From: an uncultured bacterium
Lineage (GTDB): Bacteria; Krumholzibacteriota; Krumholzibacteriia; Krumholzibacteriales; Krumholzibacteriaceae
Length of the DNA stretch: 64,000 nucleotides
Direction of reading: 5' to 3'
NCBI GenBank assembly: GCA_965369375.1
Contig: CBDUQN010000002.1
Location: 36,966-100,965, forward strand
Every line of letters begins with the position of its first letter. Positions within the stretch are counted from its first letter, which is position 1. Shown here in pieces: positions 29,321 to 43,211 of the stretch. The position numbers and the translations under genes are program-made. The notes under the pieces are model-generated. The model made no database searches. It had not been told where the DNA came from and saw only the letters and a program-made list of their open reading frames with translations.

Positions 29321-29414
29321 GAATAGCACCGGCAACTGGTGGGGGCCCGGGAATGAGAGACACGGGCCGGACGCGGTAACGAGTTAACGGCATTGTTGGA
29401 GGAGGGAGGTCCAC

Positions 29415-30125
29415 ATGAAGGTGCTGTCGCTCGGCATACATCCCGATGATGCGGATTTCGGAACGGGGGGGTATCTCCTTCTTCTATCGCAGGCGGGCTG
29501 GGAGACGGTCATCCTCGATCTCACGGAGGGGGAGAGATCTACCAACGGAACAGTCGAGGAACGCAGAGATGAGGCGAAGCGATCCGCAGGCGTGCTCGGG
29601 CTGTCGAAGAGACTCAACTGCCGCCTTCCCGATTGCGGCATCGATCGGAGCGATTCGGGACAGCTCGTGTGCGTCGTGCGTCAGTTCCGTGCCGAACGGC
29701 CCGACCTCCTCCTCGTTCCGTACTGGGAAGACGATCATCCAGATCATATCGAAGGAAGCCATCTTGCGACGAGGGCGAGATATACGGCCGGTCTCGTCAA
29801 TTACCTGCCCGAAGGCGGAGAGCCGTACCGCATTCCGACCGTTTTGTATTATCCGTGCCGGAAGACGTTCAAGCCGACATTTATCGTGGATATTTCGTCC
29901 GTATTCGAGGAGAAGGAGCGCGCAGCACGGTGTTTCGAGAGCCAGGTGATACTGTCTGAGAAAACAAGGTCCACGCCGCTTAATTCTCCGCTTTTCCTCG
30001 ACCGGCTCAGGGCCCGATCTGTGACGCTGGGCGCGACGGCGGGGGTCGACTTCGGGGAGGCGTACCTTGCCACTGAACCGTTTCTTCTGAACAAATGCGA
30101 GCGGCTTGCTCCGGGGAGGTGGTAG
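29415..30125 (+). CDS. bshB: LmbE/PIG-L family N-acetylglucosaminyl deacetylase (BshB-like)
   Basis: N-terminal VLSLGIHPDDADFGTGG (HPDD motif) and a later HxDH motif. 236 aa. Sits between bshC and bshA. GGAGGAGGGAGG RBS. Confidence 0.7.
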   Translation: MKVLSLGIHPDDADFGTGGYLLLLSQAGWETVILDLTEGERSTNGTVEERRDEAKRSAGVLGLSKRLNCRLPDCGIDRSDSGQLVCVVRQFRAERPDLLLVPYWEDDHPDHIEGSHLATRARYTAGLVNYLPEGGEPYRIPTVLYYPCRKTFKPTFIVDISSVFEEKERAARCFESQVILSEKTRSTPLNSPLFLDRLRARSVTLGATAGVDFGEAYLATEPFLLNKCERLAPGRW

Positions 30126-30128
30126 GGC

Positions 30129-31262
30129 GTGGCCCAACAGGACTTGCTGCGAATCGGCATCACGTGCTATCCCTTTCTCGGCGGAAGCGGTATCGTCGCA
30201 ACCGAACTCGGTATCGAGCTCGCGCATCTCGGCCATGACGTCCATTTTATAACGACGTCCCAGCCGATCAGGCTCAAACACTTCACGCGGAACATATTCT
30301 TTCACCAGGTCAATGTCGATAACTACCCCGTATTTCATTCACCTCCCTACGTGCTCAATCTCGCGGTGAAGATGGTCGAGGTTGCGCGAAGAAACGCTCT
30401 CGACGTACTGCATGTTCACTATGCCATCCCGCACGCCGTTTCCGCATACCTCACCAAGGAGATACTCGGGTCGAATGCGCCGGGAATCATAACGACGCTG
30501 CATGGAACAGATATAACGCTCGTCGGCAACCGCCCGGGATTTTTCGACATAACCCGTTTCGCGATCGAGCGGAGCGACGCCGTTACGACCGTTTCGGAAT
30601 TTCTCAAAATCCAAACGCGGGAGACGTTCGATCTCGAGAAAGACATTGTCGTCATTCCCAACTTCGTCGATCAGCGAAGATTCAAACCGCTCGATGTAGA
30701 GGGCAGAAGGGAGCTCTTTGCGAAACCCGACGAGAAGATTGTCCTGCACGCGAGCAATTTCAGGGCGGTGAAGCGGGTCGATACGGTCATAAAGATCTTT
30801 GGCCGGATTGCCCGGTCGCGAGCGGCCCGGCTTCTGCTCATGGGTGACGGACCCGAACTCCACGCCACCCAGCTCCTCTCGGAAGAACTCGGACTGGGCG
30901 ATCGTGTGATCTTTCTCGGAGCAAATGAGAGCGTCGAGGAGATATTTCCAATTGCCGATGTTTTTATATTGCCGAGCGATCACGAGGCGTTCGGACTCGC
31001 GGCACTCGAGGCGATGAGCTGCGGCGTGCCGGTAATCGGCACTGCGAACGGCGGGATGCGCGAGTTTATAAAAGACGGCGTGAATGGTTTTCTCTACGAT
31101 CCCGATGATATCAATGGAATGGCCGGGCGCGCGATCGAGCTTCTCGGTGACGAAGCGCGGAGACTTTCCATCGGCAAGAATGCGAGATGCGCGGTTATTC
31201 AGAGCTTCACGCGTGAGAAAATCGTGAAAAAATATGTAGAGGTGTACCGCGGCCTCGTCTAA
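30129..31262 (+). CDS. bshA: GT4 glycosyltransferase BshA-like (N-acetyl-alpha-D-glucosaminyl L-malate synthase)
   Basis: N-terminus LRIGITCYPFLGGSGIVATELGIELAHLGHDVHFIT parallels Bacillus BshA ([35 protein letters not shown]). Retaining GT-B C-terminal motifs. GTG start. Confidence 0.75.
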   Translation: MAQQDLLRIGITCYPFLGGSGIVATELGIELAHLGHDVHFITTSQPIRLKHFTRNIFFHQVNVDNYPVFHSPPYVLNLAVKMVEVARRNALDVLHVHYAIPHAVSAYLTKEILGSNAPGIITTLHGTDITLVGNRPGFFDITRFAIERSDAVTTVSEFLKIQTRETFDLEKDIVVIPNFVDQRRFKPLDVEGRRELFAKPDEKIVLHASNFRAVKRVDTVIKIFGRIARSRAARLLLMGDGPELHATQLLSEELGLGDRVIFLGANESVEEIFPIADVFILPSDHEAFGLAALEAMSCGVPVIGTANGGMREFIKDGVNGFLYDPDDINGMAGRAIELLGDEARRLSIGKNARCAVIQSFTREKIVKKYVEVYRGLV

Positions 31263-31279
31263 AATCGGCTCGGCGAATC

Positions 31280-31678
31280 GTGGACTTTATCAAAGAGGCG
31301 TATTCGGCGATGAAGCACCTTGGGGAGACGTTGCAGAGGATTGAGGGGATCATAGAGCGTGATTCCCGGTACAAGGCAAACGCTTATACTTTTATCATGT
31401 CCGCGCTCGAATACACGGTGAGCTCTGTCCCTCAGACACGGCATGTATCGGGCAGGGAGCTGATTGCGGGGATCAGGCGGTTCGCGGTTCAGCAGTTCGG
31501 CCCGATGGCGAAAGAGGTGTTTAACTTCTGGGGCATTCATGCAACGGAAGATTTCGGGCATATCGTATTCAATCTCGTGGGGGAGGGGCTCCTGAGCAAA
31601 ACCGACGAAGACAGCATCGAGGATTTCCGCAACGGATACGATTTTAAGAAGGTGTTTGAAGACGATTACTACGGCTGA
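31280..31678 (+). CDS. Hypothetical cytoplasmic protein (132 aa)
   Basis: Clean ORF, GTG start, no recognised domain. Confidence 0.4.
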   Translation: MDFIKEAYSAMKHLGETLQRIEGIIERDSRYKANAYTFIMSALEYTVSSVPQTRHVSGRELIAGIRRFAVQQFGPMAKEVFNFWGIHATEDFGHIVFNLVGEGLLSKTDEDSIEDFRNGYDFKKVFEDDYYG

Positions 31679-31733
31679 CGATCTTTCATTACCACATCCG
31701 GTGAGTGACGAATCACTGAAATCGGTTCATGTA

Positions 31734-33938
31734 ATGGCTCTCGGGTTCTGTGCCCTCTGCGCGCAGGCCATTTTCATACGGGAGCTCATGGCCCTCTTCA
31801 CGGGGACGGAGCTCGTGATAGGCATTCTGTTCGCCGGTTGGCTTCTGTGGGTGGGACTCGGCGGGTTGGTGGGGGGCAGGATTCTCAGGGGAACGGGAAG
31901 GCAGGACTTCGCCCTCTTCGCAGTCATGGTCCTCATTGTATCGCTGCTTCTCCCGGTTACCGCCGTAGTAATCAGATTCGGCCGTGGGCTGATAGTTACG
32001 GTGCCCGGTGAGCTGCCCCGGTTCGCGCCCGCTCTCCTGCTCTCTCTCGCAGCGATGGCGCCGTTCGGGTTCCTCTACGGCACGCTCTACAACAGTGCAA
32101 GCAGATTGTGGAGAGAGAGAGGGGGGATTCGTGGCGGGGTGTCGCGGGTCTACATCTGGGAGGCGGCCGGTTCCATAGCGGGGGCGGTTGCGTTTTCATT
32201 TATTCTGCTTCCTTTTTTTTCCCAGCTCGAGGCGGCGTTCATTATCGCATTTATTGTTATCGCCATCGTGAATTTTCCCTCTGGAAGCAGGAGGCGGATC
32301 GTGGGCCGATCGGTGCTGCTTTGCGTTCTCGGCGCTGCTTTTCTCTTTCTCGCACCCCCGCTCGATCGGGTGAGTATCGAAGCCGTCTACCCGGGGTACC
32401 GCGTAGAGCGTTTTCTCTCGTCGAAATACGGCGAGATAGTGGCGGCATCGCGAGAAGAGGTGATCTCTTTCTTCTCGGCTGGAGGGAGGTTGTTCTCGGT
32501 TCCCGAGCCGGAACGAGCGGAGGAGGTTGTGCATTTACCATTGCTGCTGCATCCTGAGCCGAAACGTTTGCTTCTGATAGGGGGATCGCTCGGTGGGGGA
32601 TGGGAGGAGTCGATAAAGCATCCATCCATCGAGAGCGTTGACTGTCTGGAACTAGACGGTGAGCTTCTCAGGCTCGCGCTCGAGATGACGGCGGCGGATT
32701 CCTCGATGCTCGAAAATATCGATTCGAGCGGGAAAATCGAAATCGGCGGCAATCGAACGGTGCGGTTCATAGAGGGTGATGGCAGATTTTTTCTGTCGAC
32801 GAGGCGGGAACGGTACGACGTTATCATTCTCAGTGCGCCGCCGCCGGTCAATCTCCAGTGGAATCGTTACTATACGAGGGAATTCTTCGAGCTCGTGGCA
32901 ATGTCGCTGCATCGCGGCGGGCTCTTCGGATTCAGTCATCCCTCCTCTGAAAACTTCGTCTCCGAGGAGCAGGCGATGGTCCTTCGCTCGCTCGAGGTAA
33001 CACTCGAGAGCGTTTTCGGCGAGGTGACGATCCTTCCCGGCTCGACGGCCCACTTCATAGCGGGTGATGCGCCGATCGATTTGGGGGTGATTATGCCGAG
33101 GCTCGAGGCGAGGGGTATAGAGACGCTCTATATCAGCCGGGATTATATTCCGTACCGTTTCTCGAAAGACAGGATCGAATCCCTGGAGGCGACCCTCGCC
33201 GACGTAAGAAATGCCGGGGAGAATACCGATGCAAAGCCCGTTCTGCCCATTCATGAACTCGTCCTCGAGGGCAGACGGGTCGGCTCGCGCTTCATGGGGA
33301 TGTTCGAGGTTCTGCCGGCCGCGTCTTCTCTGATTGTCATAGGGATACTATCCGTTGCTATTATCATCCTGTTTATCACCGCGCGCGGCGCCGCCGCCGC
33401 GAGGCTCGGTGTGTGGGCGGTGGGTCTCGGAAGTTTCATCTTTCAGCTTCTCGTGCTGCTCGTGTACCAGTCGTTTTCCGGGATCTTGTATCAGGCGATT
33501 GTCATGATGACGGCGCTTTTCATGGCAGGCGCTTCCGTCGGCGCGTATGTTTCGTACCGTCGCCGGGGACGCGCGACGAGAACGCTCAGAATGATACATG
33601 CTGCTTATATTCTGCTGGCGCTTTCTATCATCGTGTGGACCCTTATAATCGAAAGGAGCGCGGTGCCGTACGGAGTGGGCGCCATGGTCTTTTTCCTGTA
33701 CGCGTTTTGCGGAGGAGGGCTCACGGGCATGTATTATCCGGTAGTCGTGCGGACTGCATTACCCGAGAACGAACGGTCGATTCCGGCTACTTTTTATGCG
33801 TGGGATCTCTTCGGGGCGTGTCTCGGCGGCCTTCTCGGCGGTGCGGTGCTCTTTCCCGCTCTCGGAATTCACGGAACGGCATTCTTCGTGGTGTTTATAC
33901 ACCTCGCTGCATCGATACTGCTCGCGGGGAGATGGTAG
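31734..33938 (+). CDS. Membrane-embedded spermidine-synthase-like (aminopropyltransferase-fold) protein flanked by polytopic TM domains
   Basis: Central region (LLLIGGSLGGG..., DCLELDGELLRLA, VRFIEGDGRFF, YDVIILSAPPP) matches the spermidine synthase / class I MTase fold. N- and C-terminal thirds are multi-pass hydrophobic. Start uncertain (TTG 31656 in the tool, ATG 31734 here). Confidence 0.55.
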   Translation: MALGFCALCAQAIFIRELMALFTGTELVIGILFAGWLLWVGLGGLVGGRILRGTGRQDFALFAVMVLIVSLLLPVTAVVIRFGRGLIVTVPGELPRFAPALLLSLAAMAPFGFLYGTLYNSASRLWRERGGIRGGVSRVYIWEAAGSIAGAVAFSFILLPFFSQLEAAFIIAFIVIAIVNFPSGSRRRIVGRSVLLCVLGAAFLFLAPPLDRVSIEAVYPGYRVERFLSSKYGEIVAASREEVISFFSAGGRLFSVPEPERAEEVVHLPLLLHPEPKRLLLIGGSLGGGWEESIKHPSIESVDCLELDGELLRLALEMTAADSSMLENIDSSGKIEIGGNRTVRFIEGDGRFFLSTRRERYDVIILSAPPPVNLQWNRYYTREFFELVAMSLHRGGLFGFSHPSSENFVSEEQAMVLRSLEVTLESVFGEVTILPGSTAHFIAGDAPIDLGVIMPRLEARGIETLYISRDYIPYRFSKDRIESLEATLADVRNAGENTDAKPVLPIHELVLEGRRVGSRFMGMFEVLPAASSLIVIGILSVAIIILFITARGAAAARLGVWAVGLGSFIFQLLVLLVYQSFSGILYQAIVMMTALFMAGASVGAYVSYRRRGRATRTLRMIHAAYILLALSIIVWTLIIERSAVPYGVGAMVFFLYAFCGGGLTGMYYPVVVRTALPENERSIPATFYAWDLFGACLGGLLGGAVLFPALGIHGTAFFVVFIHLAASILLAGRW

Positions 33939-33944
33939 CCCCGG

Positions 33945-35471
33945 CTATCGCAGGTCTAGTTCTCTTTCCGAAAAGATTTCCGCAGAGAAAACTTCTATCT
34001 TTATCCCCGGCTCTTTCCATGAATCCGCGGGAAGTCCCGCTTTCATGCAGGTATGCTCGAGAAAGGTCTTGCGGTCCCAACCCATTTCGGTTGCAACCTG
34101 CGGGAGAAGCAGGCCGCGGTTCACCCCCCGTGTGATTATGATGCCGTGCTTCCCGACTTCTATCTCCGATGGATCGTCAATCTTTCGTATCGGGCTCAGC
34201 ACCGATATCTCGATCTCGAGATCGGGGACCTCTCGGGTCGTAACGGGCCGGAACCGGTGGTCGCTGAATGCCGCGGCCTTTGCCATATCCCGTATCGTCT
34301 CGGCGAGCGGCTTGACCGCTTCGATGTATCCGATGCAGCCCCGAAGCTGTCCCTGCTTCTTGAGAGTGACGAATGCGCCGAGCGGCTTCTTCATGATCGC
34401 CGAGTCGGGGACTTCCGTGTCGGCCGTCTCACCGCTGCATTCGGCCTCGATCGTCCGGCGCGCGAGTGTAATGAGAAAAACCTTTTCGTCCCTGCTCAGT
34501 CCAACGATATCCTGCGACCCGGGGTGGTGGTCCTTGTTTTGCGAACCTGGAGGATTTGCCTTTCCCTGTGGATCCGGATTATGGATCTCTTTGCTTTGAG
34601 GCTCGCTTTTTTCTGAAGGCGCGCTCTCACTTCTTATTATCGCGGCGGAGACGTACCCTACGACGTTTCCCCTGTCGCCGGTGATATCGCCTGAAGTCGC
34701 ATAGTTGAGGACCTTGCATCGATCCGATCCGAGACTGCGGGCGGCGATCATGACTGCGGCCGTCGGTCCCCCGCCGCAGGCTTCTGTGCTACGTTCGCTC
34801 AGGGCGCTAGTGAGATCGTCCGCATCGAACGCCTCGAGCTTCTCGATAAAGACGCTATCGAGCTCCCGCGCAGTCTTGTCGTTGTGAAAATGTGAGAGAT
34901 CGGTGCTTGCGACCATCAGAACGTTGCGCCCCTGCAGCGCTTCTCCGAGAACCTCACCGAGGGCTCTGATATTCCTCGTGCTCTGATCTCCCATGACGAT
35001 CGGGACGAGTTCGAACGAGCCGAGTGCCACCTGCAGGAACGGTAGCTGTACCTCGAGTGAGTGCTCGCCGCGGTCGTGTGGTGTGAAGGTATGCCCTCTC
35101 GTATCGGCCCGCACGAGCTTATTCTTCGATGCAATGAGATCGGCGAGCTCTCGGGCGATAGGTATCTCGCCGAGGGGTGTCGCGTAGGCCTTCCCGGTGA
35201 AAACCGAGGAGAAATTAAAGTATTCGGTATGGCTCGGCGAGATTACGACGACGGCGTCATACTCTTTTCCCATTACGAGGCTGTAGCCGTAGGCTGCGAC
35301 TTGTCCAGAGTACATATATCCCGCGTGAGGAGAGACGAGCGCAATCACGTCTCCCTTACCGGCCGCTGCGTCGGCATTAGCGAGATACCGTTCGATTTCG
35401 GCCCGCAGTGCAGTCGGGTTGCCGGTATAGAACTGTCCCGCGAAAGCCGGCTTGCGAATCATCTGTTCCAT
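33945..35471 (-). CDS. AmmeMemoRadiSam system fusion protein: Memo-like (system protein B) N-terminal domain plus AMMECR1 (system protein A) C-terminal domain
   Basis: N-terminus MEQMIRKPAFAGQFYTGNP...VSPHAGYMYSG is Memo-like. C-terminus PLGAFVTLKKQGQLRGCIGYIE...GLLLPQV is AMMECR1. ATG 35471 has AAGGAG 5 nt upstream. The tool ORF to 35684 over-extends and would overlap the upstream gene by about 120 nt. Confidence 0.75.
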   Translation of the reverse strand: MEQMIRKPAFAGQFYTGNPTALRAEIERYLANADAAAGKGDVIALVSPHAGYMYSGQVAAYGYSLVMGKEYDAVVVISPSHTEYFNFSSVFTGKAYATPLGEIPIARELADLIASKNKLVRADTRGHTFTPHDRGEHSLEVQLPFLQVALGSFELVPIVMGDQSTRNIRALGEVLGEALQGRNVLMVASTDLSHFHNDKTARELDSVFIEKLEAFDADDLTSALSERSTEACGGGPTAAVMIAARSLGSDRCKVLNYATSGDITGDRGNVVGYVSAAIIRSESAPSEKSEPQSKEIHNPDPQGKANPPGSQNKDHHPGSQDIVGLSRDEKVFLITLARRTIEAECSGETADTEVPDSAIMKKPLGAFVTLKKQGQLRGCIGYIEAVKPLAETIRDMAKAAAFSDHRFRPVTTREVPDLEIEISVLSPIRKIDDPSEIEVGKHGIIITRGVNRGLLLPQVATEMGWDRKTFLEHTCMKAGLPADSWKEPGIKIEVFSAEIFSERELDLR

Positions 35472-35560
35472 TTCGCTCCTTCTTTTATCAGCCATAACCT
35501 GGGGCGCCGTCACGATTGTGGCGGTTACAAGCACAGCAATAATGCGCAGTAATCTCAAAT

Positions 35561-36709
35561 CTAGTCCTCCTGCCAGATCCCGGGAATCGAATGCCCGCAG
35601 AAGCGGCATCCGCCGTCCATAATGTCGACACGTTCGATGGTGTAGCCGCGCCTCGATATTACTACCTTGCCGCATTTCGGACAAACGGTACTTTCGGTCT
35701 TGTGCCCAGGCACGTTTCCGACATAGACATAGTCGAGGCCCTCTTCACGGCAAATCTCGTATGCCCGTTCGAGCGATGAAACGGGGGTGGGGGACAGGTT
35801 TGTCATGCGGTACTGGGGGAAGAATCGTGAAAAGTGAATCGGCACGTCGGCGCCGACGTTGGCGACGAGCCAGCGGGCCATTTCACGGATCTTGTCCGGG
35901 TTGTCGTTGAGCGTCGGCACCATGAGGTAAACGATCTCGAGCCATACTCCCTGCTTGCGTATCAGGATCAAGGCATCGAGAACGGGGCGGAGCTCCGAGC
36001 TGCAGACATCATGATAGTATGACTCTTCGAACGCTTTGAGGTCGACTTTTATCGCGTCGACCATGCCGCAGAGATCGAGCAGGGGATCTTTCTTGATATA
36101 GCCGCTCGATATTACGACGTTTCGTATTCCCTTGGCTGCGGCTTCTCGCGCGATATCCTGCATGTACTCAATGAAGACGACGGGCTCGCCGTATGTATAG
36201 GCGATTGACGGGGCGCGGTATCGTTCAGCCATGTCCACGATCTGCCGGGGCGGTGTGAAGCGGGTTTCAACCTGCTCCGGCGTTGATTGCGATATCTGCC
36301 AGTTCTGACAGAACTTGCACTCCATGTTGCAGCCTACCGTGGAGAGGGAGAGCGCCTGCGTACCGGGCAGGACATGGAAGAGCGGCTTCTTCTCTATCGG
36401 ATCGATATGGAGAGCGCAGGGATGACCGTATGCGAGCGCATAGTACGTGCCGTCCCTGTTCTCCCTCACGCCGCAGTATCCGCGCTCCCGGTCTCCGACC
36501 AGGCATTCCTTCGGGCAGAGGAGGCAGCGGATTTCGTGGTGCTCGAGTTTCTCGTAATACCGCGCTTCGACCGGCCTCTCACGAGCGCCCGTTCTCACCG
36601 GTATTCCGGCGGCCGCTACCGTCAGCAGCGCCGCTGAGCCGGTAATGAAGGTGCGCCGCGTTATGGCGTCACTTTCGCGCGTGTCGGCAATCTCTCGTTG
36701 CTTGCTCAT
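35561..36709 (-). CDS. AmmeMemoRadiSam system radical SAM enzyme with an N-terminal twin-arginine (TAT)-like extension
   Basis: CNMECKFCQNW (CxxxCxxC), conserved YYEKLEHHEIRCLLCPKEC...CGVREN N-terminal region, PFL-activase-like core. ATG 36709 with AGGAAC RBS gives a 48-aa leader TRRTFITGSAALLTVAAAG. An internal GTG at VRTGARERPV would remove the leader. Confidence 0.75.
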   Translation of the reverse strand: MSKQREIADTRESDAITRRTFITGSAALLTVAAAGIPVRTGARERPVEARYYEKLEHHEIRCLLCPKECLVGDRERGYCGVRENRDGTYYALAYGHPCALHIDPIEKKPLFHVLPGTQALSLSTVGCNMECKFCQNWQISQSTPEQVETRFTPPRQIVDMAERYRAPSIAYTYGEPVVFIEYMQDIAREAAAKGIRNVVISSGYIKKDPLLDLCGMVDAIKVDLKAFEESYYHDVCSSELRPVLDALILIRKQGVWLEIVYLMVPTLNDNPDKIREMARWLVANVGADVPIHFSRFFPQYRMTNLSPTPVSSLERAYEICREEGLDYVYVGNVPGHKTESTVCPKCGKVVISRRGYTIERVDIMDGGCRFCGHSIPGIWQED

Positions 36710-36745
36710 ATTCGTTCCTGTTTCCTCGATCACGTGAGGAGCATA

Positions 36746-37714
36746 CTATATATCGAGCTCGATCGTTTCAGTCGATTCGATACTGCCGATCCCGGCGCGC
36801 GCTGCTGTTTCGATATAAACGGGATAGATGCCCTTGTCCCGAAGACTCCGCCGCTGAAGGCCGCTCCGGTATTTTTCGAGCGCAGCGAGCGCCGTAACAT
36901 CGACCGATACGGGATTTCTGCCGGTGAGAATCGTGTTTGCCTCAACCGCCCACTGACTTTTGAACGAGGGACCGCCGTCGGCCTGTATGCGCGTGAGATC
37001 GCCGATAATGAGCGTCTCCCTTTCACGAATCAGCTTCATCGTGTTCAGATCGGCGATGTACGGGTCGCAGTGGTTGAGATGGTACCTGTTGGGATTATTT
37101 ATCGCTCCGAAGTAGTTTTTCAAGGCGAATGTGATTCCGCAGATCCCATGGTCCTTCAGAACGGGCATATTGATTACCTTGTTGCAGCGTCTTGCGAGAA
37201 TCTCGCTGAAGAGACTCGCCACCGATCCCTTCTCTTGGAGATCCCGTCCGTAGCCTGCCTCGTCTGTGCCGTAGCAATGCACGGCGCTCCCTCTTTTCGA
37301 AAGCTCATACCCGGCCTCCTCGAGCTCGCTGCTCTTGCGATCCCAGATGATGATCCTGTTCCGCCTGACTCCGCATATCTCGAGCCGGTCCGTCACCGCT
37401 CTCACAAGCATCGGATTTGTTGACATCGATGGGCCGCCGAGACAGTTTACCTTGATAGAAACATGGTCGGCGGGGGAGAAGAGACTGCTCCATGCATCGG
37501 CCGCATTCGGAGCGCCTGTCATCGCGGTCATGGATTTGTCCAGGAGAGATCCGAGTATCTCGATGTCGAGGCGCTTCTTTCCCCCGTACCTGGCGGTAAC
37601 GACTCTGCCGGAGGAAGGGGGGAGCGAATAACCACTGCGGGGCAGTCCCGCTCCGGAAAGTGCGCCACCGGCGAGAATTGTGAGCATGTCACGACGGCTG
37701 TAACGATTTTTCAC
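36746..37714 (-). CDS. DUF362-like protein with a TAT-type signal peptide
   Basis: N-terminus MKNRYSRRDMLTILAGGALSGAG (RR motif plus h-region). Conserved block VINMPVLKDHGICGITFALKNYFGAINNPNRYH resembles DUF362 (recalled from memory, not searched). GTG 37714 with GAGGAG upstream. Confidence 0.4.
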   Translation of the reverse strand: MKNRYSRRDMLTILAGGALSGAGLPRSGYSLPPSSGRVVTARYGGKKRLDIEILGSLLDKSMTAMTGAPNAADAWSSLFSPADHVSIKVNCLGGPSMSTNPMLVRAVTDRLEICGVRRNRIIIWDRKSSELEEAGYELSKRGSAVHCYGTDEAGYGRDLQEKGSVASLFSEILARRCNKVINMPVLKDHGICGITFALKNYFGAINNPNRYHLNHCDPYIADLNTMKLIRERETLIIGDLTRIQADGGPSFKSQWAVEANTILTGRNPVSVDVTALAALEKYRSGLQRRSLRDKGIYPVYIETAARAGIGSIESTETIELDI

Positions 37715-37740
37715 TGTCGAATCACTCCTCGCTACTATGT

Positions 37741-37769
37741 AAGATATCAGACAATGTTATGAAATTCAA
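37741..37769 (-). promoter_or_regulatory. Candidate sigma70-type promoter for the DUF362 / radical SAM / Memo-AMMECR1 operon (minus strand TTGAAT-N17-TATCTT)
   Basis: Hexamers read from the reverse complement of 37741-37769, about 27 nt upstream of the GTG at 37714. Confidence 0.3.
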
Positions 37770-37801
37770 GTGCGACGAGAGTTCCCGTCTGGAGCGCCGC
37801 C

Positions 37802-39133
37802 TCAGGGACCAGAGCCAATTGCGGTAAAGATCCGATGGAGCGAAGCAAGCGTTCCCGCCTCGAGGCGCCCCTGGGCGTTTGCCGAATTCGATGCGCCGAT
37901 TTCGTGAGAATCATCAATAACGGAAATCGCCATGCGATCGACGATCTCACCGGCGGGATCTCTCAGGGTGAGTTGCAGATCGGCCCCATCGAAAAAGCCG
38001 CCGCCTTCGGGAAACGGCTCTTTCGTGATTTTAGTGAACTTGATGCTCTCCAACTTTCTCAGAAACCGGTTTATCTCGTGCGAGTTGATCGGCGCCGAGG
38101 GGGCGCCGGCCATGTTCCACCGTCCGCCCGAAGCTTCAAAGACGGCCGATGTGTCTGCTGTTTCATAGTGAATGGTATGTAGCGCACCAACGTAGTAAAA
38201 GGTGAGATTCATGGCGCGCATTCCGTTCTCGAGGATATCGAACAGTCCTTCGACCTTACGGTCGAGAAGCAGCACCCGGTCTTCGCCGGTGCGGACGGCA
38301 TAGATACGGTTGCCCTTCCGGGCTCCGAAACGGATCGTTACGGTATCTGCGGCGGTGTACAGCACGATCTCGCGTTTCGGTTCTCCGAAGCCGAAAGACG
38401 AGAGGCTGTCGATATCTTCACGCGCGAACTCATAGACAAGCGCTTTCGTGATTTTATTGAGGTTTCCTTCGACTACTGCGTTGTGAACTCGGTGCCTCGG
38501 TTTCTCCCGCCACCAGTGATATGCGGTTCTCTCGAGAGAAACACGCTTCGTTCCTCCGGTGATCGTGATTTTGTTGATCGCCTCTGCGCGCAGGTGGAGG
38601 AAGTTTTTATCCCTCAGGTGGTACAGGTTTTTCTGCATCACATTGCGGGTCATCTCGTGCGCGACGATGATGTTCGGTGAACCGCCGAGACGAACATAGC
38701 TGCTCGAACCTGTTGGCGTCTTGTCGCCGACAAATATGGTATCGGGCTGCGAGCGCGCGCTCGAGAATATAATGAGTGTGGCGAACGGTTCCGCGAGTCC
38801 GTAGCCGGCCGGATCGATGGCGCCGGCGAGCTCTTTCAATCGAAATCCCGGTACCGTTTGCCGGAGCAACACGTCTATTGTGGAATTAGAGCCGGGTGTG
38901 ATAGTCGGGTAGGTGATCATCCAGTCGTCGCCGCGGCGTTCCATTTCGATCCGCTCGCCCCGAGGGTTGATCAGAACGAGCCACTGAACATCTTTCGGGC
39001 CGTAAGGAAGGAGCTTTCGCGCGATTATTCTCTCCTCTTCCTTTGCGGCTTGTTGCCTCTTTTCGACAAGAAAGTAGAAGAGAGCGATCACGGTGAAGGC
39101 GGCGAGGAGTATCCAGGTTGTCTTGAACTTCAT
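37802..39133 (-). CDS. DUF4340-domain protein (periplasmic partner commonly encoded after GldG-like genes)
   Basis: N-terminal TM anchor KTTWILLAAFTVIALFYFLV then a roughly 400 aa soluble domain. Last gene of the ABC-GldG operon. Confidence 0.55.
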   Translation of the reverse strand: MKFKTTWILLAAFTVIALFYFLVEKRQQAAKEEERIIARKLLPYGPKDVQWLVLINPRGERIEMERRGDDWMITYPTITPGSNSTIDVLLRQTVPGFRLKELAGAIDPAGYGLAEPFATLIIFSSARSQPDTIFVGDKTPTGSSSYVRLGGSPNIIVAHEMTRNVMQKNLYHLRDKNFLHLRAEAINKITITGGTKRVSLERTAYHWWREKPRHRVHNAVVEGNLNKITKALVYEFAREDIDSLSSFGFGEPKREIVLYTAADTVTIRFGARKGNRIYAVRTGEDRVLLLDRKVEGLFDILENGMRAMNLTFYYVGALHTIHYETADTSAVFEASGGRWNMAGAPSAPINSHEINRFLRKLESIKFTKITKEPFPEGGGFFDGADLQLTLRDPAGEIVDRMAISVIDDSHEIGASNSANAQGRLEAGTLASLHRIFTAIGSGP

Positions 39134-39146
39134 CGGTCACGCTCCA

Positions 39147-40697
39147 TCAACCCGATCGTCTCCTGTTGATTCCTGCAATGATTCCAAGGATCGTCACGAG
39201 CGCCGGCAGTCCGAAGATCGGTATCCAGAAAAAGATTCGTCCCTGCCGGTCGGAAAAGAGAAGGGGCTGAACCATGGGATCTTTCGCGCGGATTGCAATG
39301 AGATTCTCCTCGGCGGCAAGCCAGCTAATCGTGTTCATGATCAGATCCTTGTTGGCGAGCAGCTCGAAGTATGCGTTGTTGGCGAAATCGCTGTCGCCGA
39401 AGACCGCTATACGGCTGCCGCCGGTTGTATCGCCCTCCGCCGTCACCGTTGGTGCTCTCGTCGCCACCGCTGCGAGGTGCAAAGGGCCGGAGATGTCGCT
39501 TTCGCCTTCGAATTGGCTCTTTCCGGCGAGGAGGGTATCGATATTGGTCTCCCCGTAAGCCGTTTTTCCCGTCGAGGCGATCGCCGATACGCTCAACCCG
39601 TCGGAAGGCTTCCCGGAAACCATGACTGTTCGCGCCCTGGGAAACAGTGATGCCATCGTTATCTTTTCGGTGATCGGATGGTCGGAATATTCAGTGACGA
39701 CGGGGATGAGGAAGTTGCCGGCCATGATCCTTCCCGATTTATCGATTATGACGTTGTCGCCGACTTCGATACCGTAACCGGTAATAATGGTTTCCAATTC
39801 GGAGAGCTCGAGAATCGGCTCGAGCATGACGAGAACGTTGCCGCCCTTCGCAAGGTAGCGTGAAACGACTTCCCGCTCCTGGGGAAAGAGATCCTTCTCC
39901 GGGCCCGCAATAACGAGTATATAGCTGTCGTCCGGCACCGCTGCATCCCGTAATGTGAGAAGCTCTTTCACCTCGTAATTTTCACCCTTTAGTGCCTCCC
40001 GCAGCTTGCTGTATCCGTCCGTGTCGGTGTTCGTGACCGATTTTTCTCCGTGGCCTGTGAGGAAGTAGATGACCTTCTTTTCCTCGCGGATTACGCGCAG
40101 AATTACGTTGGTGATCTTTTCTTCCGTGATCTGAGATATTTTCTCTTCGGCGCCGCCGCTTCTGACGACGATTGTTCCGTCATCGGTGACGTCGTACCGA
40201 TTGGTCGTCACCGGGTCCTTATCGGGATCGATGAAGGTATAGAAAATGCGCGGACTCCTGCTCGTATATTCCTTGAGAAGCTCCTCGAGCTCGATCTTTC
40301 CGGGAGTTGTCCCTTTGAAGAAGCAGGTGAATTCGACTTCCCGGTCCAAGTTGTTCAGTATCTGGACGGTCTGTGAGGAGAGAGAAAACCTCTTGTTTCT
40401 CGTCGTGTCGATCCGCGCATTGTGTCTTGCAGAGAGTGTCTGCAGCAGGATGAGGATCGAGGCGAGAAATACGATCGAGGCGCCGGTATGCATACCGTAT
40501 CGCGCCGTTCTGCGGTATCCGGCCGCATCCTTCCTTCGCAGGTTGCTTACCAGGGAGAATACGACGAGAACGAGACCGACGAGCAGAGGCGCGAAAGCGA
40601 TCGGTCCGCTCGTGTAGAGTATTCCGTAGGTGACGCCCCCGACGAGGATGAGCGCGAGACCGACGGGACCGGCAAGCATTTTCAATCGTTCCACCAT
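39147..40697 (-). CDS. GldG-like ABC-transporter auxiliary component (Gldg family)
   Basis: N-terminal TM hairpin, large extracytoplasmic domain, C-terminal TM (LPALVTILGIIAGINRRRS). ATG 40697 shares one nt with the TGA of the upstream permease gene. The tool ORF is over-extended to 41033. Confidence 0.7.
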   Translation of the reverse strand: MVERLKMLAGPVGLALILVGGVTYGILYTSGPIAFAPLLVGLVLVVFSLVSNLRRKDAAGYRRTARYGMHTGASIVFLASILILLQTLSARHNARIDTTRNKRFSLSSQTVQILNNLDREVEFTCFFKGTTPGKIELEELLKEYTSRSPRIFYTFIDPDKDPVTTNRYDVTDDGTIVVRSGGAEEKISQITEEKITNVILRVIREEKKVIYFLTGHGEKSVTNTDTDGYSKLREALKGENYEVKELLTLRDAAVPDDSYILVIAGPEKDLFPQEREVVSRYLAKGGNVLVMLEPILELSELETIITGYGIEVGDNVIIDKSGRIMAGNFLIPVVTEYSDHPITEKITMASLFPRARTVMVSGKPSDGLSVSAIASTGKTAYGETNIDTLLAGKSQFEGESDISGPLHLAAVATRAPTVTAEGDTTGGSRIAVFGDSDFANNAYFELLANKDLIMNTISWLAAEENLIAIRAKDPMVQPLLFSDRQGRIFFWIPIFGLPALVTILGIIAGINRRRSG

Positions 40698-41467
40698 CAG
40701 CTTCTCCAGCGGGTTGATTCGATTGAGCGTACGGATAGAAACAGAAAAAACGTGGTGAGAAAGATGTAATAACTCACATCCTGCGTATCGATAACGCCCT
40801 TGGAAAAGGAGCCGAAATGCTGAAGCAGTGAGAACTGCGAAATTATCTTCGATGACCTGGGGCCGACGAAGGGCGCCGCCCAGCCGATGAGGAGAAAAAA
40901 GAGCGCAAGTCCGAATGTCAGAACACCAGCCACGAGCTGGCTGCTCGTTACGGACGAAAAAAAGATACCTATCGAGATAAAGGTGCAGCCGACGAGGAAC
41001 AATCCCAGGTATCCCACCAGTATCGGGCCCCATTCGGGTTCGGCGAGAATGTCGAGGAGGATGGGGTAGAGGAGCGTGGCGCCGATCATGATAGCGAACA
41101 TTGTGAGCGATGCGAGAAATTTGCCGGCGATCACGTAGCCATCACGAATAGGGTAGGTAAGCAGGAGTTCGAACGTTCCTTCCCTCTTCTCCTCGGCGAT
41201 CAGTCGCATGGTGAGCAGGGGGAGAACGAGCAGGAGCACGATGCTTATATTGCTCAGCAGGGGCTGGATGATACCTTCGACGAGGTTGAGGTATTGTTCG
41301 TAAGCAGGTTGTCTCGCGGCCTGGTACGATACCCAGTTGTATTTCGCGCACTGATTAAAGAAGAAGAAACCGGATATGAAGAGGAAAACGGCATACGTCA
41401 CATAGGCCGCTGTATGTTGAAAGTAATACTTTAACTCTCTTTTGTAAATAGCTATTATTTTAAGCAT
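40697..41467 (-). CDS. ABC-2 family transporter permease (GldF-like)
   Basis: Six predicted TM helices, 256 aa. Positioned between the ATPase and the GldG-like gene. Confidence 0.7.
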   Translation of the reverse strand: MLKIIAIYKRELKYYFQHTAAYVTYAVFLFISGFFFFNQCAKYNWVSYQAARQPAYEQYLNLVEGIIQPLLSNISIVLLLVLPLLTMRLIAEEKREGTFELLLTYPIRDGYVIAGKFLASLTMFAIMIGATLLYPILLDILAEPEWGPILVGYLGLFLVGCTFISIGIFFSSVTSSQLVAGVLTFGLALFFLLIGWAAPFVGPRSSKIISQFSLLQHFGSFSKGVIDTQDVSYYIFLTTFFLFLSVRSIESTRWRS

Positions 41468-42412
41468 TTATATCGCCTCTTCGGTAATCAGCCGAAGGTA
41501 GATGTCCTCGAGTGTGAGCTCCTCTTGATAGATTTCGATGAGCGGGAGGTCCGCCGCTGTGAGCGTCTTGACGATCTCGCCGCGAAGGTCACGATCGGGT
41601 GGCGTTTCGATCGTCAGGCCCCGCGGCCCGTCCGTGACGTGGTCTTCGGTAACGAGCTGGATCCCTTCCAGTTTCGAAAGTATATCTCTCGCGTGTTCCG
41701 ATGGTGCGGTATTTTTCAGTTTGATGTGGATTACCGAGGCTTGTTTGAGTTTCGCCCGGAGATTGTCCGGGGTGTCGTCCGCAACGAGCTCGCCCCTGTT
41801 TATGATGATAATCCGGTTACAGACATGACTAACCTCGGGAAGGATATGGCTGCTCAGGATAATGGTCCGGTCTTGCCCGAGGCCCTTGATCAGCTCCCTG
41901 ATCTCTATGATCTGCTTCGGGTCGAGGCCTATCGTCGGCTCGTCGAGAATCAGGAGCTCGGGATCGGCAAGGAGCGCCTGCGCGATTCCGATTCGCTGCT
42001 GGTATCCCTTCGAAAGTTTCTGAATCATCCGTTTGGGAACCGACTGCAGGCCGCATTGCTCGAGGACCCGGTCCACTTCGCGGGGGATACGCCTCGCATG
42101 GACACCCTTGAGCCGCGCGATATATTCGAGGTAGTGGTACGTGCTCATGTCTCCATAGAGGGGATTGTGTTCCGGGAGGTAACCGATGCACGCGCGAGCG
42201 GCAAGCGAATTCTCGAGAATATCATAACCGAAGATACTCGCCGTCCCCGAGCTGGGGGGGAGGTAGCAGGTCAGCATCTTCATGGTCGTCGTTTTGCCGG
42301 CTCCGTTCGGGCCGAGAAACCCGAGCACCTCGCCTTTGGCGACTTCGAAATTCAGATCACGGGCACCGACAGTGGCCCCGTAGTATTTGGTCAGACCCCT
42401 GACCTTTATCAA
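41468..42412 (-). CDS. ABC transporter ATP-binding protein (GldA-like)
   Basis: Walker A GPNGAGKTT, signature LSKGYQQRIGIAQAL, Walker B LLILDEPTIGLD. TTG start at 42412 with GGGAGG 6 nt upstream gives the canonical MIKVRGLTKYYG N-terminus. Confidence 0.8.
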   Translation of the reverse strand: MIKVRGLTKYYGATVGARDLNFEVAKGEVLGFLGPNGAGKTTTMKMLTCYLPPSSGTASIFGYDILENSLAARACIGYLPEHNPLYGDMSTYHYLEYIARLKGVHARRIPREVDRVLEQCGLQSVPKRMIQKLSKGYQQRIGIAQALLADPELLILDEPTIGLDPKQIIEIRELIKGLGQDRTIILSSHILPEVSHVCNRIIIINRGELVADDTPDNLRAKLKQASVIHIKLKNTAPSEHARDILSKLEGIQLVTEDHVTDGPRGLTIETPPDRDLRGEIVKTLTAADLPLIEIYQEELTLEDIYLRLITEEAI

Positions 42413-42480
42413 AAAGAACCTCCCGCGAGAACGCCGAGGCTGTGTGTAACCATGCTGATGATAATTCCAGTAACTTATAA

Positions 42481-42509
42481 AATGTAGTACTTTGCGGCAA
42501 AGTGTCAAT
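42481..42509 (-). promoter_or_regulatory. Sigma70-type promoter of the gldA-like operon (minus strand TTGACA-N17-TACATT) with a 15-bp perfect palindrome ACTTTGCgGCAAAGT in the spacer
   Basis: Consensus -35 TTGACA and near-consensus -10 read on the reverse complement. The 7-bp inverted-repeat arms fill the spacer. Confidence 0.5.
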
Positions 42510-42718
42510 TACAAACACGAAATAATTCTTTACCTCTGGCGGCGGGCTTATCTATTATGGCCCGTAATGCGAATCTGATAGCGTGTCATGTATGCGGATG
42601 GGGCGGGAACCGGCCCGCCGCCGGATTCAATGCGCTATCGGTTGAATTGATGGAACAAAATACGATAGCGCGCGTAGAGACTTATGATGCCGTTATGTAA
42701 CCAGGAGAAAGGAATGAG

Positions 42719-43195: not shown

Positions 43196-43211
43196 CGGCT
43201 GGGAGTAAACG

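Follow-up and report, generated by a model that had tools for sequence, protein, structure and literature searches.

The locus described here raises the question of whether the leader-like N-termini carried by an AmmeMemoRadiSam cassette reflect an envelope-associated system or a set of membrane anchors. Within the window, the 64-kb stretch of DNA that was analyzed, three ORFs on the minus strand encode a DUF362 protein, a radical SAM (rSAM) enzyme of the TIGR04337 family and a Memo-AMMECR1 fusion protein, all of which score above curated HMM cut-offs. A preliminary description of this DNA had proposed three co-oriented minus-strand genes of these families, and both the ORFs and the assignments were borne out by searches with TIGR04335, TIGR04336, TIGR04337, PF04015 and PF04055. 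The spacing it gave between the DUF362 stop and the rSAM start codon, 36 nt, is exact. Signals were called from HMMs, motifs and purpose-written hydropathy scripts.

The rSAM enzyme (382 aa; 35561..36709, minus strand) runs from an ATG at 36709, 6 nt downstream of an AGGAA ribosome-binding site, to a stop at 35561. It scored 377 bits against TIGR04337 (cut-off 220) and 69 bits against PF04055, and contains the previously noted motifs CNMECKFCQNW and YYEKLE...CGVREN. Alignment revealed invariant cysteines at C62/C65/C69/C79, at C127/C131/C134 in the radical SAM motif and at C343/C346/C368/C371; as in canonical AmmeMemoRadiSam proteins, the CxxxCxxC motif of radical SAM enzymes and both Cys4 motifs, N- and C-terminal, are kept. 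Because the TIGR04337 profile starts at the YYEKLE core, the first 48 residues (36566..36709, minus strand) constitute an extension, which had been likened to a TAT signal. It consists of an n-region, a TRRTFIT motif, a Gly/Ala/Ser/Thr-rich h-region GSAALLTVAAAG and a basic c-region IPVRTGARERPVEA, and matched TIGR01409 (TAT_signal_seq) at 18.4 bits, above the cut-off of 16.7; against PF10518 it scored 15.5 bits, below that model's cut-off. An [ST]RRxF[LI] motif and an Ala-rich h-region precede the core in 111 of the 120 nearest homologs. Among GTDB species representatives of many phyla, a leader was found in all 78 assessable loci, with R[RK] in 68, KR in three and a hydrophobic segment lacking RR in seven; relatives from the Omnitrophota, Elusimicrobia and WOR-3 have leaders without RR that are Sec- or lipoprotein-like. 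Across a 37-sequence alignment with a mean column identity of 57%, residues R18, R19 and F21 were at least 90% conserved. The gene also has an internal GTG. The conservation of the leader goes far beyond chance, and the comparison identifies the extension as a conserved twin-arginine leader rather than a start-site artefact or an over-extended ORF.

Downstream of the rSAM gene, a single ORF encodes the Memo-AMMECR1 fusion (33945..35558, minus strand; 537 aa from a TTG at 35558). Its Memo domain (system protein B; 34641..35462, residues 79-347 of the long ORF by PF01875) scored 280 bits against TIGR04336 and 208 bits against PF01875 and contains the motifs PHAGY, EHSLEVQLPF, STDLSHFH and ACGGGP. 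The AMMECR1 domain (system protein A; 33960..34499), with its LRGCIGY motif, scored 191 bits against TIGR04335 and 199 bits against PF01871. Between them lies a low-complexity linker rich in Pro, Ser, Gln and Lys (34500..34640), to which the AF2 model assigns a pLDDT below 50 (residues 314-350 of 537); the model as a whole (mean pLDDT 87.5) has two confident domains separated by this disordered segment. Both domains occur in one chain in all 120 top homologs, so that the B-A fusion, as previously proposed, is genuine by homology and by model, and a frameshift or assembly artefact finds no support. Where the preliminary description went astray was the start codon. It had placed the fusion 90 nt from the rSAM stop; the distance is 89 nt to the ATG at 35471 (MEQMIRK), which is itself probably not the true start. 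In frame with this ATG, the TTG at 35558 is preceded by a GGAGG 7 nt upstream, lies only 2-3 nt from the rSAM stop, corresponds to the gene call on the source contig, and adds the N-terminal sequence MRLLRIIAVLVTATIVTAPQVMA. A hydrophobic leader is present in 102 of 120 homologs, seven of which have lipobox-like motifs, and in one relative (L082) the frame is open and the fusion, which starts at a GTG 2 nt past the rSAM stop, has a hydrophobic leader; some gene callers have chosen the internal ATG (14 of 120 homologs). Most likely, then, judging from these sequence features, the protein starts at TTG 35558 and bears a Sec-type signal peptide, MRLLRIIAVLVTATIVTAPQVMA followed by DKRRSEMEQMIRKP (35490..35558, minus strand), a signal which, like the start itself, had previously been missed. 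The early mature region is basic (DKRR), a property that can impede Sec export.

The DUF362 protein (322 aa; 36746..37714, minus strand; GTG start) scored 73.7 bits against PF04015 (cut-off 24) and begins with MKNRYSRRDMLTILAGGALSGAG. Its leader, MKNRYSRRDMLTILAGGALSGAGLPRSGYSLPPSS (37610..37714, minus strand), had been read as twin-arginine, and homologs agree: 82 of 120 have the RR motif, the rest beginning directly at the mature SRVV motif, and the closest share the pattern Y[ST]RR[ED]LL, conserved as [ST]RR[ED][LMF]L. The leader had no match to TIGR01409 or PF10518. In the AF2 model (pLDDT 91.5), residues 1-35 are of low confidence and the fold starts at residue 37; a Foldseek search of the PDB matched it to nickel-pincer racemases of the LarA type (E 4e-6), so the mature domain is modeled as having a LarA-like fold. 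The likeness holds at the level of the fold, with a TM-score of about 0.5 and an identity of only 12-15%; moreover, the mature protein has about 285 aa, whereas LarA has about 420, and it carries a Tat leader. DUF362 and the N-terminal domain of LarA belong to one Pfam clan, CL0471 (PMC11770544). The previously noted linkage to AmmeMemoRadiSam genes recurs: in about 26 of 80 related loci, the gene immediately upstream of rSAM encodes a DUF362 protein. About one third of the DUF362 partners are leaderless and would require Tat hitchhiking for export.

A fourth gene, overlooked in the preliminary description, converges on the fusion gene, with 6 nt between the two stop codons. It encodes a 760-aa protein (31656..33938, plus strand; putative start codon) in which 14 TM helices flank a central domain resembling spermidine synthase (PF01564, 53 bits). 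Full-length homologs adjoin a leader-bearing rSAM gene in 39 of 80 loci, two of them archaeal, and the homolog in L082 is syntenic; by this conservation the protein is a fourth component of the cassette. Like the membrane-bound aminopropyltransferases (NF002956/PRK03612, and the fused MFS/spermidine synthases of NF037959), it has an N-terminal 7-TM region followed by a SpeE-like Rossmann domain in which the Gly-rich G-loop, the ribose-binding acidic residue and a DGR motif are retained. Unlike them, it has an additional C-terminal 7-TM domain and scores far below the equivalog cut-offs (122 bits against NF002956, cut-off 472). The catalytic Asp motif of SpeE, D-x-(S/T)-D-P, is lost, being replaced by N-L-P-D-P in the family consensus and L-S-A-P-P-P in the window protein, so that a role as an aminopropyltransferase is improbable. 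Positive-inside analysis of the family's loops gave a mean K+R of 15.0 vs. 1.5, a bias shared by all 27 sequences analyzed; the SpeE-like domain is accordingly predicted to lie on the non-cytoplasmic side.

Further indications of location came from a domain-fusion survey of the closest 50%-identity clusters of the rSAM enzyme. Two relatives (P0377, P0393) have a signal or anchor followed by FMN_bind and then the rSAM core with no intervening TM helix; in two others (P0368, P0364) a signal is followed by CBM11 or a beta-propeller and then rSAM; and in five (P0370, P0373, P0378, P0379, P0382) DsbD_2 or NosR-type Fer4_5 membrane modules precede rSAM. The gene before P0393 encodes a DsbD_2+Fer4_5 membrane protein, and several loci have stand-alone DsbD_2 or NosR-like genes within the cassette. 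FMN_bind, NosR/NapH-type Fer4_5, DsbD_2 and CBM11 modules typically belong to extracytoplasmic proteins or to conduits that carry electrons across the membrane. The fusion or adjacency of NosR/NapH-type, RnfG/NqrC-type FMN_bind and DsbD/CcdA modules to rSAM in close relatives matches the way in which periplasmic redox enzymes receive electrons; the window differs, since no FMN_bind, NosR or DsbD partner was found within its 64 kb. In the rSAM tree, the window enzyme belongs to a clade of 36 tips, 83% of them leader-bearing; a separate clade of 81 tips has no leaders, and the nearest neighbor is of the same category in 105 of 115 cases. Canonical members, of about 335 aa, start at MKEAxYY, have no leader and form a clade separate from the window enzyme. 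Sequence comparison assigns the arrangement to a large subfamily spread across many phyla, within which fusions are the rule; the leaderless control sample is very small. How widespread the arrangement is had gone unnoticed previously.

Taken with the established family memberships, conserved leaders, four-gene linkage and fusions of relatives to extracytoplasmic or transmembrane redox modules, from which we infer actual export of the locus proteins, our preferred reading, which we hold to be probable, is that the locus encodes a coherent and widespread extracytoplasmic variant of the AmmeMemoRadiSam system with four conserved proteins. It would differ from the canonical system in the B-A fusion through a disordered linker, in the predicted export signals on all of its proteins and in having two more conserved partners, DUF362 and the polytopic SpeE-like membrane protein, beside three adjacent genes of the canonical families. 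The rSAM enzyme would fold and receive its Fe-S clusters in the cytoplasm before Tat export via the TRRTFIT leader, and the LarA-like DUF362 protein would likewise be exported by Tat. A cleavable signal of its own would send the Memo-AMMECR1 protein through Sec to fold outside, the fusion allowing one signal peptide to deliver Memo and AMMECR1 in a 1:1 ratio. On the same outer face, the 14-TM protein would present its SpeE-like nucleotide-binding domain (of the SAM or decarboxy-SAM type), and together the four proteins would act on a periplasmic or envelope substrate by radical-SAM-dependent chemistry. That the SpeE-like protein delivers or handles an adenosyl-sulfonium cosubstrate outside the membrane is a more tentative proposal, and we regard it as doubtful.

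Known systems bear on this reading in several ways. PFL-activating enzyme (PFL-AE) is the nearest solved structure to the rSAM enzyme (E 2.5e-7), and PFL-AE and several activase HMMs are its next-best NCBIfam matches, a likeness that suggests protein- or peptide-directed H-atom abstraction. The window enzyme nonetheless scores far below the activase cut-offs, has additional Cys4 motifs and carries a Tat leader, whereas activases are cytoplasmic; no glycyl-radical enzyme was found in the locus. A PFL-activase-like enzyme could stoichiometrically 'activate' its Sec-exported partner once folded outside, in which case little SAM would be needed and the need to export the activase itself would be explained. 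Neither SAM nor a low-potential reductant is known to be available in the periplasm, which weighs against the extracytoplasmic reading; in relatives, reductant would arrive through conduits of the FMN_bind, NosR or DsbD type, either fused to the enzyme or adjacent to it. Tat-exported Fe-S proteins with signal-less hitchhiker partners are familiar from hydrogenase small/large subunits and DmsAB. The window enzyme resembles them in combining an Fe-S cofactor with an [ST]RRxF[LI] leader and, in some lineages, in having leaderless partners, but its main partner in the window uses Sec instead of hitchhiking. As far as we know, no radical SAM enzyme has been established as a Tat substrate, and none turned up in the searchable literature. 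No Tat genes were found within the 64-kb window.

That the leaders and the fusion are annotation, frameshift or assembly errors in an ordinary cytoplasmic cassette beside an unrelated DUF362 gene is extremely improbable. The internal starts in the fusion and rSAM genes would permit it, but it is already contradicted by conservation: leaders are kept at the amino-acid level across phyla, ribosome-binding sites suit the upstream starts, the fusion recurs in independent assemblies, at least two contigs carry the identical rSAM sequence, and DUF362 linkage is recurrent. A more serious, if unlikely, alternative is that the leaders are uncleaved anchors tethering a cytoplasm-facing AmmeMemoRadiSam complex to the inner membrane face beside the SpeE-like protein. 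The supply problem would then vanish, SAM and reductant both being plentiful inside; the very hydrophobic non-RR leaders of Omnitrophota, Elusimicrobia and WOR-3, which are hard to square with cytoplasmic Fe-S loading, resemble TM helices; the fusion N-terminus is one long helix in the AF2 model; and leaderless AMMECR1 and DUF362 partners adjoin leader-bearing rSAMs, as in two Thermodesulfobacteriota loci (L052, L075) where an RR-leader rSAM neighbors an unfused AMMECR1 without a leader. Against it, positive charges N-terminal to the h-regions predict an N-in, C-out orientation, and the full Tat consensus, weakly hydrophobic h-region and basic c-region of the rSAM leader are features of a cleavable Tat signal rather than an anchor. 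AxA-type cleavage sites and lipoboxes in the partners, rSAM cores placed beyond FMN_bind, CBM11 or beta-propeller domains without a TM helix between, and the uniformly outward prediction for the SpeE-like domain point the same way. Of the two possibilities raised in the preliminary description, envelope association is accordingly favored over a cytoplasm-facing anchor.

Partial export, which we judge improbable, would have the rSAM enzyme modify its partner in the cytoplasm and escort it with the Tat leader, or would make that leader a non-exporting proofreading remnant. In the latter version, DUF362 and the fusion would work outside and the leader, like that of NarG, would serve chaperone proofreading. 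There is established precedent for both Tat hitchhiking and remnant Tat motifs, and leaderless DUF362 and AMMECR1 partners beside RR-leader rSAMs fit such a scheme. Co-export of heterodimers has been noted (PMC10924467). The rSAM RR motif, however, is fully canonical and highly conserved, unlike degenerate remnants, and the window's main partner uses Sec, so it would cross the membrane unfolded, with neither prior modification as a folded protein nor co-export with the rSAM enzyme. The fusions of FMN_bind and CBM11 to the rSAM core also speak for an external location of the rSAM domain itself.

We found no description of a four-component extracytoplasmic variant in the searchable literature, the coverage of which is incomplete. 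If the extracytoplasmic reading is correct, chemistry usually regarded as strictly intracellular may in this case run outside the cytoplasmic membrane.

Three co-oriented ORFs occupy positions 33945-37714 of the minus strand, and ORF reading together with HMM searches bore out the coordinates, motifs and family guesses that the preliminary description had given for all three. The middle gene (ATG 36709 to 35561, minus strand) begins exactly 36 nt after the stop of the DUF362 gene, with AGGAA 6 nt upstream. It encodes the radical SAM enzyme (rSAM) of an AmmeMemoRadiSam cassette, scoring 377.1 bits against TIGR04337 (cut-off 220), and its CxxxCxxC motif, CNMECKFC, is invariant in the homologue alignment. 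The TIGR04337 profile starts at the YYEKLE core, leaving a 48-aa N-terminal extension on this enzyme, whereas canonical members begin at the core without a leader. Within the extension, TRRTFIT is followed by the h-region GSAALLTVAAAG, a Tat-type motif resembling [ST]-R-R-x-F-L-K with a moderately hydrophobic stretch behind it, and the leader scored 18.4 bits against TIGR01409 (cut-off 16.7) and 15.5 bits against PF10518 (cut-off 22.7). With a weakly hydrophobic h-region and a basic c-region (IPVRTGAR), the leader shows the features classically seen in cleavable Tat signals that avoid Sec, and not those of a transmembrane anchor.

The Tat-like character first proposed for this extension is supported by its conservation. 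When a 5.8-billion-protein collection was searched and the best 120 rSAM homologues were assessed, 111 had [ST]RRxF[LI] and an Ala/Gly-rich stretch ahead of the (E)ARYYEKL core, and in the remaining nine the gene call begins at a Met within the h-region. Across 37 aligned sequences (mean identity 57%), conservation of R18, R19 and F21 of the leader reaches at least 90%. One genome of each GTDB species was scanned, giving 80 loci, and the leader was present in all 78 that could be assessed: 68 had R[RK] and a hydrophobic stretch, three were KR variants, seven were very hydrophobic without RR, and two loci were cut by contig ends. Orthologues beginning at the internal GTG, the outcome that would have spoken for a shorter protein, do not occur among these homologues and loci. 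The 80 loci come from Krumholzibacteria-like MAGs, Caldithrix, KSB1, Aminicenantes, Acidobacteriota, Zixibacteria, Latescibacterota, Eisenbacteria, Poribacteria, Planctomycetota and Brocadiaceae, Omnitrophota, WOR-3, Elusimicrobia, Thermodesulfobacteriota, Aenigmatarchaeota and Altiarchaeota. Very hydrophobic, Sec- or lipoprotein-like rSAM leaders, often lacking RR, are found in Omnitrophota (L037, L038, L047, L050, L055, L056, L062, L067, L076) and Elusimicrobia (L042), and several of them end in a lipobox (..LTAC, ..LIAC, ..LVTC).

Leader-bearing enzymes also hold together phylogenetically. The rSAM family comprised 1543 clusters at E <=1e-30 (1.84 billion 50%-identity representatives searched); among the nearest 150 clusters, 47 had hydrophobic N-terminal leaders (35 with RR) and 85 had none, and leader forms filled 24 of the top 30 ranks. 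A neighbour-joining tree placed the window's enzyme in a clade of 36 tips, 83% of them leader-bearing, apart from an 81-tip clade with no leaders, and in 105 of 115 cases a tip and its nearest neighbour agreed in category. One sub-clade (L034, L061, L064, L066, L070, L072, L080) has a 30-40-aa insert between leader and core with a conserved CxxCH followed by His residues (e.g., ARYWISANSEGVRCLSCHAEDDGVEGTHYAH). CxxCH is the heme-c attachment motif, and read as such it would fit a periplasmic enzyme; however, the insert resembles a duplicate of the adjoining RCLLCP motif, and we do not claim a heme-c site. In an Omnitrophota MAG (L065, 6691-9083), two tandem rSAM paralogues, of which just one has a leader (RR type), are followed by a gene for a SpeE-like membrane protein.

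The gene downstream of rSAM encodes a Memo domain (TIGR04336 280.2 bits, cut-off 26; PF01875 208 bits) and an AMMECR1 domain (TIGR04335 191.4 bits, cut-off 99; PF01871 199 bits) in one reading frame, in B-A order. The adjacency of the two genes stands as previously described, but the 90-nt spacer does not: the gap between the rSAM stop and the ATG of MEQMIRK is 89 nt. The frame is open upstream of this ATG, and an alternative start, TTG 35558, lies 2 nt past the rSAM stop and 7 nt past GGAGG. This TTG, which is the start chosen by the gene caller on the source contig, adds MRLLRIIAVLVTATIVTAPQVMA ahead of DKRRSEMEQMIRKP. By inspection and a simple script, the resulting N-terminus (MRLLR-IIAVLVTATIVTA-PQVMA, then D) fits the Sec pattern of a charged n-region, a hydrophobic h-region and small residues at -3/-1; the preliminary description missed this putative signal peptide of the fusion's own. 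Among 120 fusion homologues, 102 were called with a hydrophobic leader followed by a conserved K(D/G)xxxM(E/D)xxVRKPAVAGQFY, and 14 were called at an internal Met. The related locus L082, whose rSAM (P0013) is 73% identical to that of the window, likewise has its fusion called from an internal ATG, with an open upstream frame in which a GTG, 2 nt past the rSAM stop and behind GGAGG, would begin VNITRILAAAVIVLLMPHQEPAA. Fusion leaders in other phyla often end in lipobox-like motifs (..LIGC, ..LVGC, ..TQGC).

That Memo and AMMECR1 are genuinely fused here, and not joined by a frameshift artefact, is clear from the presence of both Pfam domains in 120 of 120 homologues and from the AF2 model, in which an N-terminal helix leads into a Memo domain (33-309) and, past a disordered linker (314-350), an AMMECR1 domain (356-537), both domains being modelled with confidence; the model gave no confident arrangement of Memo relative to AMMECR1 (pTM 0.62). 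Loci from Thermodesulfobacteriota (L052, L075) and Sumerlaeota (L053) depart from the usual pairing of fusion and signal peptide: they combine a leader-bearing rSAM and an adjoining SpeE-like gene, yet their AMMECR1 is separate and leaderless. Other joinings also occur among the relatives, including an 835-aa triple fusion of Memo, AMMECR1 and rSAM in one polypeptide (P0384, by Pfam) and a 651-aa protein (P0392) that reads as an AMMECR1-like C-terminal segment directly ahead of the rSAM core.

The first gene of the cassette (37714 to 36746, minus strand; GTG start with GGAG upstream) encodes a DUF362 protein (PF04015 73.7 bits, gathering score 24) with a leader containing SRRDMLT and then ILAGGALSGAG. 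The twin-arginine leader described earlier holds up in comparison: the closest homologues have Y[ST]RR[ED]LL, and an RR motif occurs in 82 of 120, although the window's leader itself matched neither of the Tat HMMs TIGR01409 and PF10518. Most homologues without RR have no extension at all and begin at the mature SRVV motif, and this all-or-nothing distribution is typical of real signal peptides. The AF2 model (pLDDT 91.5), whose fold begins at residue 37, resembled LarA-type nickel-pincer racemases (E 4e-6, TM about 0.5). This match is consistent with the placement of DUF362 and the LarA N-terminal domain in a common Pfam clan, CL0471 (PMC11770544). K187, H189, K199 and H212 are invariant among the DUF362 homologues.

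A fourth component is encoded at 31656-33938 on the plus strand, convergent with the fusion gene and with the two stops 6 nt apart. Its product is a 760-aa polytopic membrane protein with a central spermidine-synthase-like domain that passes PF01564 (53 bits vs. 22.9) and falls below the equivalog cut-offs of TIGR00417 (60.9 vs. 249.55), NF002956 (122.5 vs. 472) and NF037959 (33 vs. 40). Full-length homologues lie beside a leader-bearing rSAM in 39 of the 80 loci, both archaeal loci included; some follow the rSAM or B-A gene in the same direction and others are convergent. When 14 transmembrane segments were mapped on 27 aligned sequences, one set of loops contained a mean of 15.0 K+R and the other 1.5, in the same direction in 27 of 27; under the positive-inside rule, the SpeE-like domain is predicted to be non-cytoplasmic. 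This domain retains the Gly-rich loop, the ribose-binding acidic residue (VELD) and the DGR motif. The catalytic D-x-(S/T)-D-P of SpeE, which is D-L-T-D-P in T. thermophilus SpeE, is absent, with L-S-A-P-P-P in the window and N-L-P-D-P as the homologue consensus. Since the binding motifs are kept and the catalytic motif is lost, the domain looks like a SAM- or dcSAM-type binding module and not a true aminopropyltransferase.

Canonical AmmeMemoRadiSam systems have separate A and B proteins without leaders, a typical though not strictly defining arrangement; the window, by contrast, has a single B-A ORF and leaders on all proteins. The rSAM and fusion genes are adjacent, with the fusion starting 2 nt (TTG) or 89 nt (ATG) past the rSAM stop, and this adjacency recurs in about 38 of the 80 related loci. 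Three architectures recur among the loci (DUF362-rSAM-membrane protein, rSAM-BA-membrane protein and BA-DUF362-rSAM), and all four genes occur together in the window and in L082. Eight loci from Aminicenantes, Zixibacteria and similar MAGs (L005, L007, L009, L010, L015, L018, L019, L024) have a compact trio of leaderless DUF362, RR-leader rSAM and SpeE-like membrane protein, and neither Memo nor AMMECR1 was detected within up to 8 kb on each side (less at contig ends). For rSAM of the trio clade, the link to DUF362 and the membrane protein may therefore be closer than that to Memo and AMMECR1. Four control neighbourhoods of leaderless rSAM contained no Memo, AMMECR1, DUF362 or SpeE-like neighbours, but so few controls cannot establish that only the leader-bearing clade has this linkage. 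No second, leaderless AmmeMemoRadiSam copy was found in the window.

Genes flanking the cassette were also considered. Directly upstream of the SpeE-like gene, and overlapping its start, is a gene for a 132-aa Minf_1886-family protein (31280-31678, plus strand; TIGR04138 147 bits, cut-off 60); the pairing is kept in L001, L003 and L082, and was not seen in more distant loci. Adjacent BshB1 and BshA genes (29415-31262, plus strand; TIGR04001 218 bits vs. 182.5 and TIGR03999 506 bits vs. 273.7) indicate that the organism makes bacillithiol. Directly upstream of the cassette, at 37802-42508 on the minus strand, are genes for a GldA/GldF/GldG-like ABC transporter and a DUF4340 protein, all below the Gld equivalog cut-offs. 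We do not count them as members of the system, since their association with the cassette is confined to the closest relatives (L001, L003, L014, L082), and such limited conservation probably reflects synteny and not function. A scan of 33500-43000 for promoter and terminator consensus sequences gave counts no better than shuffled sequence, an Rfam scan of 29000-43500 found no SAM riboswitch or other RNA, and no TatA-like motif was found within the 64-kb window.

Independent support for export comes from domain fusions, which occur in several of the top-ranked relatives. In P0393 and P0377, an RR motif or signal anchor is followed by FMN_bind and then rSAM, with no transmembrane helix between them. 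A CBM11 module in P0368 and a Reg_prop/PorZ-like beta-propeller in P0364, domains typical of surface or secreted proteins, stand behind a signal anchor and ahead of the rSAM core. In P0370, P0373, P0378, P0379 and P0382, DsbD_2 and/or FMN_bind and NosR/NapH-type Fer4_5 membrane modules precede rSAM. The gene of P0393 has a gene for a DsbD_2 and Fer4_5 membrane protein ahead of it. At L084 (658-3785), a gene for such a membrane protein overlaps the start of one for an RR-leader, FMN_bind and rSAM protein, and the pair looks like a complete transmembrane electron path to a radical SAM domain. Stand-alone DsbD_2-like or NosR-like genes occur in or next to the cassette in L037, L055, L067, L006, L019, L027, L054 and L060; those within the cassette in the Omnitrophota loci L037, L055 and L067, whose rSAM leaders are Sec- or lipoprotein-like, are DsbD_2-like. 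No separate FMN_bind, NosR or DsbD partner was found in the window. FMN_bind domains, such as those of RnfG, NqrC and NosR, are flavinylated by ApbE outside the cytoplasm, and NosR and DsbD move reducing power across the membrane. Fusions of this kind would be expected if the rSAM domain works outside and is fed electrons from inside.

Given the four family assignments, the conserved leaders and linkage, and the redox-conduit fusions of relatives, the catalytic domains of all four proteins probably lie outside the cytoplasmic membrane, with rSAM and DUF362 exported with their cofactors by Tat and the fusion by Sec. Under this reading, leaderless partners, among them the AMMECR1 proteins of L052 and L075 and roughly a third of the DUF362 proteins, would need Tat hitchhiking, and the non-RR, Sec- or lipoprotein-like rSAM leaders of Omnitrophota, Elusimicrobia and WOR-3 fit poorly with Fe-S loading in the cytoplasm. 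A role for the SpeE-like membrane protein in supplying or handling SAM on the outer side is rather doubtful. The nearest characterised relatives of rSAM are glycyl-radical activases, but the enzyme scores only 57.6 bits against TIGR02493 (cut-off 231.75), which sets it apart from PFL-AE-type activases, and no glycyl-radical enzyme was found in its neighbourhood. It is conceivable that, once the Sec-exported Memo-AMMECR1 protein has folded outside, rSAM activates or modifies it by radical chemistry in near-stoichiometric fashion. Activation of the partner outside would explain both the need to export the activase and the fusion of the two partner domains behind one signal peptide. For the clade as a whole, it is possible, if short of probable, that all members are extracytoplasmic, either Tat-exported with their clusters or built into NosR-, FMN_bind- or DsbD-type electron conduits, and served by a SpeE-like membrane protein that delivers or recycles SAM.

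To our knowledge, the cytoplasm is taken to be where radical SAM enzymes work, since SAM, low-potential reductants and Fe-S assembly are all found there. In the literature covered by searches on AmmeMemoRadiSam, AMMECR1/Memo/radical SAM, radical SAM with Tat, and DUF362, there was no description of an exported AmmeMemoRadiSam variant and no report of a Tat-exported radical SAM enzyme. Some of the contexts described here may already be noted in the 2019 comparative study of Memo, AMMECR1 and rSAM by Burroughs et al., the most relevant paper of its kind. The HXS antiphage system was considered as a precedent and set aside, as its sole "Tat signal" passage, in the Methods, concerns MalE/CueO signal peptides engineered onto the effector HxsA and gives no hint of an exported rSAM (PMC13128918). 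Fusions of the kind found here already go by the name "system protein B / system protein A" in databases, and in an NCBIfam search of the cassette no curated model set apart an exported or fused form. The families themselves are known.

The Tat leaders, the export signals of the partners, the outward-facing SAM-type domain and the fusions to ApbE-type FMN_bind, NosR and DsbD modules together suggest that a large, phylogenetically coherent subfamily carries out periplasmic or cell-surface radical SAM chemistry in many uncultured anaerobic phyla. If true, radical SAM chemistry would here take place outside the cytoplasm, a situation for which we found no precedent. Memo and AMMECR1 are both linked to human disease, and their biochemical role is an old open question. 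Nucleic acids in the cytoplasm are out of reach of an exported paralogous system, which narrows the range of substrates for the chemistry of the family. In the four-gene, membrane-organised version, partners, electron path and cosubstrate handling would be encoded side by side and open to reconstitution. The interest of the system therefore lies in where radical SAM chemistry can occur and in the experimental route that it would offer into the function of Memo and AMMECR1.
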